Shown: positions 1,676-12,569, counted from the stretch's first letter. The stretch: 36,642 nt of DNA from Anaerolineae bacterium (GCA_041737735.1 JBGSRB010000435.1:1-36642); one strand, 5' to 3'. The notes: generated from the sequence alone by a model not told the origin. Made by a program: numbers and translations.

Positions 1676-1739
1676 CCACTTGACCTAAAGGGCGACCCAT
1701 CGCTCATCTCATGTCATACACACCTATAACGGGTATGCT
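1676..1739 (+). promoter_or_regulatory. CCACTTGACCTA box (1676-1687) plus putative -10 TATGCT (1734-1739) for yihY
   Basis: Exact 12-mer shared with the csbD and DUF1328 upstream regions, with the same 46-nt gap to a -10-like hexamer. Confidence 0.65.
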
Positions 1740-1842
1740 GGATACGATGGCACGCATCGTGAATGTGGTGCTGTTGTGCCGTTGGTTAAACCAAACTCGA
1801 ATTGCCGCTGCGCTGCACTCACGCGGAGGAAAGGTAGGCATT

Positions 1843-2736
1843 ATGCGTGTTCTCCGAACAATTTTCGATCTCATCCGCACCACCTTCAACCAATGGAATC
1901 AGCACAACGCGCCGATGATGGCAGCGTCACTTGCCTACTTTGCAGCGTTTTCGATTGCCCCGTTGATCGTGATGGTGGTGTCGATTGCGGGCTTGGTGAT
2001 CAGTCAAGACGCCTTGCAAACACAGATTCTGACCGAGATCGAAGCCACGCTGGGCGCTGAAACCGCCGAACTGGTGGCAGACATCATCCAGAACATTACC
2101 GAACCAGCGCAAGGCATCATCTCGACCGTGTTGAGCGTGGGCGCGCTGCTGTTTGGCGCGCTAGGCGTATTCAATCAATTGCAGAATGCGCTGAACCGCA
2201 TCTGGAACGCCGCCGAAGTGAAGCCCCCCACTGGCATCGTCAGCTTCATCACCGATAAGTTGCTGGCGTTCAGCATGATTTTCGTGCTGGGCGGCTTGCT
2301 GGTGCTATCGATCATGCTCGGCACAGTGGTCACGCTGATCGATGAGAATATCACCAGCGCTCTGCCCGGCTCGAACATCCTTTATCAGATCGCCAACTTC
2401 GCGCTGTCGTTCGGCATCACCACGCTGCTGTTTATGGTCGTCTATAAGGTGCTGCCGCGCGTCGAAATTCACTGGGGCGATGTGTGGGTGGGCGCAGTCG
2501 TAACCACGCTGTTATTCACCGTTGGGCGCACGATATTGGGCTTGTATTTGAACAACGTCGCCGCGACATCGACGTATGGCGCGGCGGGCGCGTTGATCGT
2601 GGTGCTGATATGGGTATATTATTCGGCGCAGATTGTGCTTTTAGGCGCGGTGTTCACACACGTGTTCACCAAGTGGCGGCACAACCTGCCCGTGATCGTG
2701 CCTAAAACTGCCGAGATGCCCGTCGAAAAGGCGTAA
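1843..2736 (+). CDS. YihY/virulence factor BrkB family membrane protein
   Basis: Motifs MAASLAYFAAFSIAP, LQNALNRIW, STYGAAGALIVVLIWVYYSAQIVLLGA. Start moved to ATG 1843 because of the GGAGGAAAGG RBS; the ORF-track start at 1711 overlaps the promoter. Confidence 0.9.
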   Translation: MRVLRTIFDLIRTTFNQWNQHNAPMMAASLAYFAAFSIAPLIVMVVSIAGLVISQDALQTQILTEIEATLGAETAELVADIIQNITEPAQGIISTVLSVGALLFGALGVFNQLQNALNRIWNAAEVKPPTGIVSFITDKLLAFSMIFVLGGLLVLSIMLGTVVTLIDENITSALPGSNILYQIANFALSFGITTLLFMVVYKVLPRVEIHWGDVWVGAVVTTLLFTVGRTILGLYLNNVAATSTYGAAGALIVVLIWVYYSAQIVLLGAVFTHVFTKWRHNLPVIVPKTAEMPVEKA

Positions 2737-2760
2737 GCGGCGCGCGGCTTACGCTTCTTC
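2731..2760 (+). terminator. Hairpin terminator between convergent yihY and AI-2E genes
   Basis: GCGTAAGC (2731-2738) / GCTTACGC (2747-2754) followed by TTCTTC. Confidence 0.5.
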
Positions 2761-2785
2761 GATAGTGTGATCACGATCATCACGA

Positions 2786-3886
2786 TCACATCGACTCCAC
2801 TTCACCACCATTGGTCTTAAAAATTGGCACCCCACCCTCAACCGCGTAAGCTGTCACTTGTTCGGCGCGTGGTTCGACCACGAAACGGCGCAGCAGCACG
2901 CTGATTGTGCTAAGGATCGGGATCGAGATGATGCCACCCATCACGCCATACAACGCGAAACCGACGAAGATCGCCACCAGCACCAGCAGCGGATCAACGC
3001 TGATCGAACGCGCCATCACGCGCGGGGATAGCACGTGTGCTTCAATCTGCTGGATGATGAAGAACACCACGAACACCACCAATGCGTTCGCCGGGGATAC
3101 CAACAGCGCAAACCCCACCGCCAACACCCCGCCCACCAAGCCGCCCACAATCGGCAGAATCGACGTGATGCCCAAGATAAAGGCATATGTGGCGGCGCTG
3201 TTGACGCCCAACAGCGATAAAACGATGAAGTTAGCGATGCCCACAAACAGAGCGATGAAGATCAAGCCGCGCGTGTAGCTGCCTAGCGATTCTTCGATTT
3301 CGAGCAGCGCGGCTTCGCTGTTTTCCCGATGCTCGGAAGCGCTTAAACGTGTGATGAAGCGGATCGCTTTATCGCGCGACGCCAGCCAATAAATGCCCAT
3401 CACGATCACCAGCACCAGGTCACCAAGTGCGTCGCTGGCGCTGCCTGCCAACGTGGGTGCGCTGTCGCGCAGTTGTTGCACAACATCCGCCACTGCTTCA
3501 CGAATCGTCTCGGTGTCCGCCAAGGCGACTTCTTCGCCGGTGATGCGGCTTAGATTGAATTCGAGAAAGTTGCGCGCAATAAGAATACGATTCGCCAAGC
3601 GGGCATCGCTTTGCATGTAATCAGCAGCTTGATTGACCAACGGGGGCAGCAGCGCCACCAAAATGATAAACGTGAACAACAGCGCACCCACGTAAATGAG
3701 CAGGATGGCTGCCCCTTCTGGCACACGCCAGCGCACCAGACGCCCCACCAGCGGGCGCACTGCCGACGCGATAATCATCGCCAGCAGCAGCAGCACCAAC
3801 ACATTGACGCTCATAAACAACGCATAGCCAGTTGCCAACGCCGCCAGTACCGCCAGCGTAATTTTGAACGCCCGCTGCATGGTCAT
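2786..3886 (-). CDS. AI-2E family transporter (PerM/UPF0118)
   Basis: Multi-TM protein with LPIVGG, IQQIEAHVLSPRVM and G..G.IISIP motifs; AAGGGGG RBS. Start could be 3880, 3886 or 3895. Confidence 0.88.
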   Translation of the reverse strand: MTMQRAFKITLAVLAALATGYALFMSVNVLVLLLLAMIIASAVRPLVGRLVRWRVPEGAAILLIYVGALLFTFIILVALLPPLVNQAADYMQSDARLANRILIARNFLEFNLSRITGEEVALADTETIREAVADVVQQLRDSAPTLAGSASDALGDLVLVIVMGIYWLASRDKAIRFITRLSASEHRENSEAALLEIEESLGSYTRGLIFIALFVGIANFIVLSLLGVNSAATYAFILGITSILPIVGGLVGGVLAVGFALLVSPANALVVFVVFFIIQQIEAHVLSPRVMARSISVDPLLVLVAIFVGFALYGVMGGIISIPILSTISVLLRRFVVEPRAEQVTAYAVEGGVPIFKTNGGEVESM

Positions 3887-3928
3887 ATTGCCCATTTCCC
3901 CCCTTGGTGCGCGCCCCACAGCGCGCAG

Positions 3929-11202: not shown

Positions 11203-12165
11203 TTAAGCCGTCGGTCGCAGATCACGGTCACGATCTTCATCAAGACCGGTTTCCTGCTTGAAATTTTCCACACCGACATAACCACCCGCACCTGCCGCGA
11301 ACGCGCCGACCACCATCGCCGCGAAAATCGCACCCGCCAGCAATGTGGTCGCATCAGCGACAGCTTGCGCGGCGCTGCGCGCTGCTGTTTCGGCGTCTTC
11401 ACGCACTTCAACGAACGCAGCTTCCCAGCGATCCAAGCGTTCACGTGCTTCTTGCGCTGACAGGTCAGTGCGTTCCGCGATCAAGGTCGCCAGATTTTCG
11501 CGATCTGTCTCGGTGATGTCATCCGGGTTGCTCATCAAGAACGTGCTGATCGCGCGATTCACCTCGAATTGATCGAGCGTCATCGGCGAGTCTGCCGCTA
11601 CCGCTTCGCCGTCAGCATTCTCGGTCGCGAACAGATCGCGCGCTTCATTTTGAATTGAGGTCAACGCACCGTCTTGCACATTGAGCGCGCTCGCCACTTC
11701 AGGCGCTACGTCAGCGGCGCCTGATACCACTGATGCGAACGCATTGGTCACACCATTGATGATGCTGCCGATTGAGGTGGTCAGCATAACCAGCGTGAGC
11801 GCCGTCACCACCGCCCACGTCACCAAACCATGCAGCACGCCGTCATCATCGTTGGCGATGCCCGACATGCGTCCGGCGGTGAAACCACCCAAAAACAAGC
11901 CGATCAAGGTGCTAGCGGCTAACCAAACCACCGTACCCGTGCCAAGCGCAGGTTCGATAGGATCAATTTCTTGCAACGGGTTGACCGTAGCTGCACCGAT
12001 TGCCAGCCCCAACATATAAAGCGCAAACATCGTCACTAAAGCGATTACCGCGCCCGCCAGAATCGCTGCCCATGACACGCGGCGCACGTGCGGCTGCACA
12101 ACCGTCGGATTGTAAACATCCGCACGGCTGTCTACGGTATAATTCGGTACAGGTCTAACTGCCAT
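11203..12165 (-). CDS. Conserved hypothetical membrane protein (VSW.AI.AG type, often seen in stress-gene clusters)
   Basis: Three N-terminal TMs (RRVSWAAILAGA..., GGFTAGR, GVLHGLVTWA), a helical soluble region and a C-terminal TM; AAGGA RBS. Family name not securely recognised. Confidence 0.75.
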   Translation of the reverse strand: MAVRPVPNYTVDSRADVYNPTVVQPHVRRVSWAAILAGAVIALVTMFALYMLGLAIGAATVNPLQEIDPIEPALGTGTVVWLAASTLIGLFLGGFTAGRMSGIANDDDGVLHGLVTWAVVTALTLVMLTTSIGSIINGVTNAFASVVSGAADVAPEVASALNVQDGALTSIQNEARDLFATENADGEAVAADSPMTLDQFEVNRAISTFLMSNPDDITETDRENLATLIAERTDLSAQEARERLDRWEAAFVEVREDAETAARSAAQAVADATTLLAGAIFAAMVVGAFAAGAGGYVGVENFKQETGLDEDRDRDLRPTA

Positions 12166-12230
12166 TTTATTTGTCCTTTATGAGGGATTTGCCCCCTTTA
12201 GAGATAAAGTGAGATCGAACAAGAATCGAA

Positions 12231-12261
12231 CCGCGCGCGCCATCTTGCTCAGCGCGCGCGG
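12231..12261. other. GC-rich stem-loop between the DUF1328 gene and the membrane-protein gene
   Basis: CCGCGCGCGC (12231-12240) / GCGCGCGCGG (12252-12261), extendable with flanking AATCGA/TCGATT. Confidence 0.55.
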
Positions 12262-12269
12262 AAATCGAT

Positions 12270-12434
12270 TTAGGTTAAAACGCGGCGTCCCAATAACAAC
12301 GCGCCCACAAACAGCACGAGGAACACGATAAACAGAATCTGCGCGATACTACTCGCCGTCCCTGCCACACCGCCGAAACCCAGTAGTCCCGCCACAACCG
12401 CGATGATCAGGAAGATAACTGCCCAGCGTAACAT
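12270..12434 (-). CDS. DUF1328 / UPF0391 (YtjA-like) small membrane protein, 54 aa, absent from the ORF track
   Basis: Manual translation [64 protein letters not shown]; matches the family pattern ML.WA..F..IA..A..LGFGG.A..A..IA.ILF. Confidence 0.92.
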
Positions 12435-12489
12435 GTTTTGTTATCCTTTCGCTTTCGAGCGATACTCATCCAACGTATGGATTAGTTAC

Positions 12490-12569
12490 ATTGTCCGTTA
12501 TAAACAGTGATTAAACACAAGCAGGATGCAGGGTTTTGGGCTAGGTCAAGTGGTGGGTTTTACGCTAGG
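12490..12569 (-). promoter_or_regulatory. CCACTTGACCTA box (12542-12553) plus putative -10 GACAAT (12490-12495) for the DUF1328 operon, with flanking direct repeats
   Basis: Exact 12-mer on the minus strand with a 46-nt gap to the hexamer; CCTAGCnnAAAACCC occurs twice, 24 nt apart (12531-12545, 12555-12569). Confidence 0.65.

Follow-up and report, generated by a model that had tools for sequence, protein, structure and literature searches.

Gene content of the locus

This study concerns a 36,642-nucleotide stretch of DNA from an Anaerolineae bacterium (GCA_041737735.1, JBGSRB010000435.1:1-36642; "the window" below denotes this whole stretch), in which three promoters of predicted stress genes share an identical 12-bp box, CCACTTGACCTA, and which encodes between two of them a NarL-type response regulator that probably binds these promoters. 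The exact copies lie at 1676-1687 (+), 8587-8598 (+) and 12542-12553 (-), and there is no other in the 3.92-Mb assembly, which is 87% complete, a value that bears on every absence reported here for the window's genome. The first box precedes the gene for a YihY/BrkB-family membrane protein (1843-2736, +; TIGR00765 above its cut-off), the second that of a CsbD-like protein (8734-8949, +) and the third that of a DUF1328 (YtjA-like) small membrane protein (12270-12434, -), the last two being identified by family search; all three genes are predicted targets. At a distance of 46 nt past the 12-mer stand the -10-like hexamers TATGCT (1734-1739, +; yihY), TATCCT (8645-8650, +; csbD) and GACAAT (12490-12495, -; DUF1328), with predicted transcription starts near 1746, 8657 and 12483, and the corresponding -35 positions read ATGTCA, ATGATG and GTGTTT. 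GACAAT recurs 46 nt past the box in two other promoters of this genome (C80 and C227). The boxes, their common gap, the -10 hexamers and the poor -35 hexamers had all been described in the initial annotation, and each was re-found at the same coordinates and with the same sequence; separate gene calls, made with a hexamer-based gene caller that leaves 5,199 intergenic bp in the window, likewise bear out that every copy is intergenic. A further copy with two mismatches (4681-4692, +) falls within the 3' end of the gene for the hybrid kinase described below, on the opposite strand and with no -10 at 46 nt, and is probably a chance occurrence.

The region between yihY and csbD is occupied by an operon on the minus strand that encodes, in order, a DUF4118-PAS-PAS-HisKA-HATPase sensor kinase (6568-8490, with an uncertain start between 8400 and 8547), a single-domain receiver protein recognized by family search (6133-6564), a hybrid Rec-PAS-HisKA_3-HATPase kinase (4663-6105), the response regulator of the NarL/LiaR/VraR type (3929-4570) and, downstream of it, an AI-2E family transporter (2786-3895) whose gene is itself preceded by a box in some relatives. 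The hybrid kinase is the likely cognate kinase of the regulator, as their adjacency is kept in relatives; some of the relatives' HisKA_3 kinases have GAF domains. Directly downstream of the DUF1328 gene is a gene for a 320-aa membrane protein (11203-12165, -) that belongs to no Pfam or NCBIfam family and may be the second gene of the same unit. Its nearest Atlas clusters are mostly from Pseudomonadota and carry the automatic name "PhnA-like", and a homologue occurs in the island of one relative (L094). One RNA sequencing run contained a small share (0.08) of the stretch, and its contigs, which show few differences, extend over csbD, the 320-aa gene and DUF1328; the end of one contig, at 12464, falls 19 nt inward of the predicted start, and as the contigs are uninformative on starts and levels they are not used as evidence.

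Architecture of the operator

The 12-mer proved to be the inner part of a longer element. In place of a lone 12-mer centred near -64, as initially proposed, each promoter carries a putative primary operator (site 1) that is a 16-bp dyad of the 7-2-7 type, T-N3-CCA-NN-TGRCCTA, located at 1672-1687 (+), 8583-8598 (+) and 12542-12557 (-); with the -10 set at -12 to -7, it spans -74 to -59 and is centred near -66.5. This is the 16-bp inverted repeat with a 2-bp spacer that is typical of NarL/FixJ operators. At the divergent promoters of several relatives (L073, L093, L095 and L097) the box forms a complete or nearly complete palindrome, TAGGNCA-NN-TGNCCTA, while sites that serve a single direction have a C-rich left arm.

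Exactly 24 bp downstream of site 1 all three window promoters have a second, weaker copy (site 2), which spans -50 to -35 and is centred near -42.5 (1696-1711, +, for yihY, where it ends at the -35 position; 8607-8622, +, for csbD; 12518-12533, -, for DUF1328). Its form is best seen in an alignment that draws on seven genomes of another family and comprises 53 non-redundant sites (59 matches less five in-gene or antisense matches and one duplicate), where the columns that are free of the search pattern repeat site 1 with a period of 24. The conserved bases, with their counts among the 53, are A-53 (43), A-51 (45), C-46 (47), C-45 (46), A-44 (36), T-41 (32), C-38 (41), A-35 (43), T-34 (49) and G-33 (42), and a scan of periods gives a peak of 0.48 at 24 against values of 0.21-0.33 across 14-31. 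A site-2 matrix derived from that other family scores 10.4, 7.8 and 8.6 at the yihY, csbD and DUF1328 promoters, values reached by only 0.01%, 0.05% and 0.03%, respectively, of 91,942 intergenic 23-mers of the window's genome. Some site-2 copies are themselves palindromic, and the spacers between the promoter elements diverge freely. The -35 hexamers appear poor because site 2 overlaps this region, so that they consist of its last base followed by the T-G shared with TTGACA; similarly, the A-tract upstream of the -35 is the left flank of site 2. Accordingly, the earlier picture of a single class I site combined with a weak -35 gives way to one of two sites, the second of which overlaps the -35 region.

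The possibility that there is nonetheless a single class I activator site near -64, with the downstream conservation reflecting an A-tract for the polymerase alpha subunit's C-terminal domain (alpha-CTD) and a degenerate -35, has some points in its favour. An A-tract is indeed found at -54 to -51, a position at which binding of alpha-CTD is possible, and in the window's genus site 2 is weak. Moreover, Escherichia coli NarL is able to activate from a single 7-2-7 site at -67.5 (PMC7419079), which by our count from its supplementary alignment is 47 nt from the -10, one base off the spacing seen here. However, the conserved C-46, C-45, A-44, T-41, G-40, C-38 and A-35 repeat site 1 with an exact period of 24, and this, along with the existence of palindromic site-2 copies, renders the single-site explanation improbable.

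The same features bear on whether the box is part of a promoter for an alternative sigma factor, either with its TTGACC as a -35 element or through an ATG-N20-TAnnnT signal read by a group 2 sigma. The genome encodes four group 1/2-like sigma70 proteins, and in two relatives (G139 and G066) a box precedes a group-2-like sigma gene, both of which are compatible with such a role. Against it, there is no -10 peak 14-19 nt past the box, as the initial annotation had argued in rejecting TTGACC as an alternative-sigma -35; the site is a dyad that can serve both directions; and all four sigmas have a canonical region 4.2 motif, with none of them box-preceded in the composite scan of the genome described below. 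We therefore regard this explanation as very improbable, though the polymerase acting at these promoters may contain a group 2 sigma as its subunit. The conserved A-T-G at the -35 was considered as a special sigma signature and dropped, as it is simply the end of site 2.

Spacing and significance of the pattern

A chance expectation of 0.004 occurrences had been given for the 12-mer in the window, but this figure is post hoc, as 18 different 12-mers occur at least three times in the window; among these, CCACTTGACCTA alone has every copy in intergenic DNA. Further, the strict 12-mer by itself shows no enrichment over a reversed control in 31 genomes, and both degeneracy and spacing are required for a signal to emerge. 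With these included, the fixed 46-nt spacing noted in the window holds out of sample. A matrix built from 29 sites of relatives only recovered 65 strong intergenic matches in this genome, ten of which have a -10 at 46 nt, as against a mean of 1.02 and a maximum of 4 at other spacings. Applied to intergenic DNA beyond the window, a box-only matrix, for which some training sites had been picked with the spacing in view, produced 51 strong matches; 6 of these have a -10 at 46 nt, and among the spacings from 10 to 61 no other had a count above 3. In five box-rich relatives, which were selected for their high counts at 46 nt, the pattern CCANNTBDCCTA-gap-TANNNT has 51 matches at this spacing, 6 at 41 and 2 at 56. 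The spacing counts at named loci are small (22 and 20 boxes, one likely duplicate locus being left out).

The frequency of triplicate 12-mers in the window might favour chance, or a small repeat devoid of regulatory function, as the source of the pattern. This is contradicted by the out-of-sample spacing, the orientation of the boxes, their conservation before orthologous genes and their co-occurrence with the regulator, leaving it a negligible probability. Thus, the operator pair is almost certainly real, and an operator of the activator type that keeps a constant distance to a sigma70 -10, as first suggested, is supported by the sequence and the spacing, with activation itself being a prediction from this geometry.

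The predicted regulon

A composite model consisting of site 1, site 2 and a -10 at 46 nt identifies 11 promoters in the window's genome with scores of 21-35, after which the scores drop to 14; the three window sites rank first to third. The remaining predicted targets comprise genes for PRC-barrel, PA14/SH3 and PIN-domain proteins, an alternative F1F0 ATPase operon, a ferric-reductase-like protein, a kinase-AAA-TPR protein, an ABC-2 permease and one gene without annotation. The promoters of the ferric-reductase-like gene (C80:6586) and of the ATPase operon (C348:282) are near-duplicates over about 60 nt, box included, and the ATPase operon is preceded by a box in another genome (G060) too. No full two-site promoter was found before the kinase operon of the window.

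In relatives the architecture is present at dozens of promoters in many Chloroflexota genomes. Predicted targets there include genes for DUF1328 (many), CsbD, YihY, YtxH, PRC-barrel, transglycosylase-associated, DUF892, DUF2383, DJ-1/PfpI, ferritin-like, DUF2188 and DUF3309 proteins, transaldolase, the E1 component of 2-oxoglutarate dehydrogenase and short-chain dehydrogenases/reductases, and, among regulatory proteins, receiver/PAS kinases, a LuxR paralogue and a group-2-like sigma factor. Beyond the families for which published regulons are cited next, these are typical general-stress genes. The products of csbD, ytxH and yacL are listed as general stress proteins of the SigB regulon of Bacillus subtilis (PMC9847131), and the CsbD-like yjbJ and the DUF1328 gene ytjA are among the sigmaS-controlled small proteins of Salmonella (PMC5437024). 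The earlier proposal of a stress-gene regulon is thus supported, in that boxes precede csbD, DUF1328, yihY, YtxH, PRC-barrel, DUF892 and PfpI-type genes.

Several observations on regulatory genes accompany these predictions. The group-2-like sigma70 gene that follows a two-site promoter in L249 (G139) and L262 (G066) encodes a protein with 39-48% identity to the four sigmas of the window's genome, and has no close counterpart among them. In L091 (G008), L336 (G016) and L278 (G167), a sigma70 gene adjoins csbD or is found near it, and its product is 80-85% identical to the C376 sigma of the window's genome; in the two divergent cases of this set no two-site promoter points at the sigma gene. 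In L073:5221 (G008) and L095:2122 a palindromic box stands before an AI-2E gene leading into kinase and regulator genes, which would give positive autoregulation.

The candidate regulator and its co-occurrence with the operator

The product of the gene at 3929-4570 has the Pfam domains Response_reg and GerE, retains the phosphoacceptor position Asp57 and aligns to LiaR/VraR, with a recognition helix that reads A179-T-V-K182-N183. Its best relatives in PDB are VraR/LiaR, DevR and NarL, but it scores below every NCBIfam cut-off (159 against 250 bits for the NarL family); its closest homologues in named records are labelled Anaerolineae or Aggregatilineales. The initial annotation had named it as the binder, and co-occurrence, gene neighbourhood and the operator geometry of the family all point to the same protein. 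Boxes cluster beside the regulator gene in many genomes, and composite sites in particular cluster around genes of the clade with an (S/A)-T-V-K-N-H helix rather than around sister paralogues with K-F-H. The two genomes that combine a high-scoring homologue with an absence of boxes (G133 and G148) are explained by their homologue being a K-F-H paralogue. In 16 such islands 222 proteins were called, and among the 93 that were scanned (those not already named by BLAST) the other DNA-binding matches were limited to two sporadic OmpR-type proteins and one sigma factor.

Of 161 genomes of the order, 51 encode a homologue at E<=1.3e-76, and 44 of these contain the strict pattern, as do 27 of the remaining 110; the reversed control occurs in 26 of the 51 and 49 of the 110. 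These genomes are kin rather than independent samples, and Fisher values overstate the association. The excess is strong in families f1 and f2 and modest in f7. At the level of individual promoters, 41 csbD and DUF1328 upstream regions from the 31 genomes searched were scored with a matrix trained on family f2 only: 14 of the 16 from regulator-bearing genomes score at least 8, while none of the 25 from regulator-lacking genomes exceeds 6.9, several of the latter being upstream of distant homologues or of internal operon genes.

Within the window's genus, the regulator-bearing genomes fall in four places of an RpoB tree; three of these have testable regulator-lacking neighbours, and all are concordant (one node having a support of 0.58). 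Whole-genome counts of the pattern in the genus amount to 14 matches in five regulator-bearing genomes, one of which had none, against 1 in five without the regulator. In members of the genus without the regulator, the csbD upstream region (L006, L007, L009, L010, L013 and L017, of G003, G004, G011, G012, G013 and G015) shows in place of the box a palindrome, ACCCCTA-N5-TAGGGGG, about 21 nt before TATAAT and degenerate in L013 and L017, which may belong to another regulator. Upstream of DUF1328, regulator-lacking genomes (L031-L035, L025, L026 and L030) have yet other blocks (TGTAATTA...GTGAGAAAG...ACATTTCAA before TATAAT; AAATTAAGATATACT). The presence of such alternative conserved motifs suggests that these promoters were rewired, with one control element replacing another.

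Beyond the order the architecture becomes rare. A sample of 400 other genomes of the phylum gave 7 matches against about 8 control matches (counted by eye), i.e. background, whereas a sample of the class outside the order gave 17 matches in 15 genomes against about 7 control matches, of which 6 look real. The range is therefore best described as patchy but rich in the order and sporadic in other Anaerolineae.

A number of findings weigh against the proposal that the window's regulator acts through this operator pair, beyond the kinship of the compared genomes mentioned above. With regard to the operator, at one-way promoters the outer left arm mostly reads TCCC or CCCC, where a palindrome would have TAGG; several strong site-1 boxes (L074, L075, L336 and C156) have neither a site 2 nor a -10 at 46 nt; a composite test that leaves out site 2 is weak, its 14 sites comparing with 3-11 when the offset is shifted; and for the composite model shifted controls reach 26.1 once and 20-22 three times, being otherwise at most 14. 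With regard to the regulator, FastTree gives its clade of 33 sequences a weak support of 0.78, and in IQ-TREE a core of 25 sequences has a support of 100, which falls to 27 where the other nine join it; the T-V-K-N-H helix is not diagnostic, as it is also found in unrelated members such as PDB 7x1k; and some islands (G139, G034, G161, G072, G167 and G009) contain second NarL paralogues. In family f8 the excess of the pattern is absent, with 22 strict matches against 20 for the control. Finally, six genomes outside the order (G218, G585, G776, G865, G868 and G871) have convincing two-site promoters, although their best homologues have K-A-H or K-S-H helices and lie outside the core clade, and in G585, which is 91% complete, no regulator homologue was found at E<=1e-55. 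In these out-of-order genomes either related proteins with a small residue at position 183 read the same site or the binder is another factor.

Several of these points could be accommodated if the operator and regulon are as described but the binder is a NarL-family heterodimer, a different paralogue or an unlinked factor, the window's regulator being only a partner or a neighbour. The C-rich left arm, which is present in both sites, is unexplained by a plain homodimer and leaves room for a heterodimer; BldM-WhiI and RcsB heterodimers provide precedents for binding to asymmetric sites. The second paralogues in the above islands, and the two-site promoters outside the order without a core-clade regulator, could be read in the same way. 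On the other hand, the other close paralogues encoded by this genome (C192, C253 and C73) group with genomes that lack the box, full palindromes occur among the boxes at divergent promoters, and inside the genus the presence of the box closely matches that of the regulator. Hence, a binder other than the window's regulator acting as a homodimer appears unlikely, albeit not to the degree of the alternatives considered earlier, and the window's regulator is our preferred candidate.

The window also contains an open reading frame at 26310-27872 (-) with a weak Mrr_cat match, which overlaps the end of a methionine synthase gene, was not accepted by the gene caller and lies in a region that looks atypical.

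Comparison with known regulatory systems

The kinase of the DevR/DosR system of Mycobacterium tuberculosis is of the HisKA_3 type, as is the one here. DevR/DosR is a NarL-family regulator that depends on a primary and a secondary box in tandem, those at -42.5 and -63.5 being one example; G5 and C7 of the half-site are essential (PMC3177182). It shares with the present system both this tandem arrangement and the placement of one box at -42.5, beside the -35 (PMC3177182, PMC4082495). In the operator described here, conserved G/C and C positions correspond to these two bases, and the equivalents of DosR Lys182 and Asn183 are present in the window's regulator (aligned via PMC4482077). The differences are equally clear: the half-site is TAGGYCA as against G4G5G6A7C8T9 of the Dev box; the tandem period is 24 as against 21 in the tgs1-Rv3131 example; the position of DosR Lys179 is Ala in the window's protein and Ser in relatives, so that the Lys179/Lys182/Asn183 triad is incomplete; and the targets (CsbD/DUF1328/YihY/YtxH-type) as well as the kinase domains of the window (DUF4118-PAS-PAS and Rec-PAS) are unlike those of DevR/DosR. 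That system is marked by a heme GAF sensor and by induction through hypoxia or NO, and GAF domains do occur in the HisKA_3 kinases of some relatives, as noted above.

The closest structural matches in PDB are LiaR/VraR, whose consensus T(X)4C(X)4G(X)4A (PMC4482077) provides a 16-bp scaffold that is also present here; the pattern-free site 2 matches its T, C, G and A positions in 31, 46, 26 and 43 of the 53 aligned sites. The lysine of the window's regulator corresponds to LiaR Lys177, which is equivalent to DosR Lys182 and NarL Lys188, and the combination of a consensus with a secondary site, along with a tetramer model, is a further likeness. However, the secondary site of LiaR is without discernible homology to its consensus (PMC4482077); the one described here is a degenerate copy of site 1. 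The kinase encoded next to the regulator, a soluble Rec-PAS-HisKA_3 hybrid, scores 106 bits against the LiaS cut-off of 450, no match to the LiaF family was found in the window, and the targets differ from those of LiaR/VraR. Given the divergent Dev box sequence, the substitution at Lys179 and the lack of LiaS and LiaF in the window, the protein would be a tandem-site activator like DevR and LiaR but a member of neither group.

E. coli NarL at the ogt promoter offers a third point of reference, with 7-2-7 sites, tandem activation, one site abutting the -35 and activation from -67.5; it differs in its heptamer, in the native positions of its sites (-77.5 and -44.5) and in responding to nitrate (PMC7419079). 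As for the targets, the families csbD, ytxH, yacL, yjbJ and ytjA are shared with the SigB regulon of B. subtilis and the RpoS regulon of Salmonella (PMC9847131, PMC5437024). Control in those regulons is by a stress sigma factor, while here it would be by an operator pair for a response regulator; no SigB/F/G-type sigma (TIGR02980) over the cut-off was found in the window's genome.

Functional implications

The above observations suggest that the boxes are the strong upstream halves of a tandem operator pair that is likely bound by the regulator encoded at 3929-4570 and is predicted to activate a general-stress set of genes; we consider this interpretation probable. A plausible sequence of events can be outlined. 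The PAS-containing sensor kinase, the single receiver and the hybrid HisKA_3 kinase would pass phosphate to Asp57 of the regulator, whereupon a phosphorylated dimer would occupy site 1, centred near -66.5. This dimer could then cooperatively load a second dimer, or form a tetramer, on the weaker site 2 near -42.5, which ends at the -35. The occupied pair would in turn recruit sigma70-type RNA polymerase to promoters that appear to retain only T-34/G-33 of the -35 element and a -10 of the TAnnnT type.

In a broader sense, the evidence leaves it evenly balanced whether a NarL-type phosphorelay activator that acts on tandem operators governs the general stress response in this Anaerolineae order, replacing SigB, RpoS or EcfG. 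Under such a scenario, the regulator would have been lost or gained several times in one genus, with the csbD and DUF1328 promoters rewired each time, and in one family it would drive a group 2 sigma factor and further kinases, placing it at the top of a cascade. No description of this motif or regulon was found in the literature searched (most subscription journals and RegPrecise-type databases lying outside the search), nor any publication on the control of CsbD-type general-stress genes in Chloroflexota. The model is precise and testable, as it specifies a regulator, an operator, a tandem geometry, predicted starts and a list of targets. It suggests that a stress gene set that is under alternative sigma factors in Bacillus and enterobacteria is here under a two-component activator with a DevR-like architecture. 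The motif has the specificity needed to link many small proteins that lack annotation to a stress function across the mostly uncultured Anaerolineae, and the switches within one genus offer a natural case of regulon rewiring.

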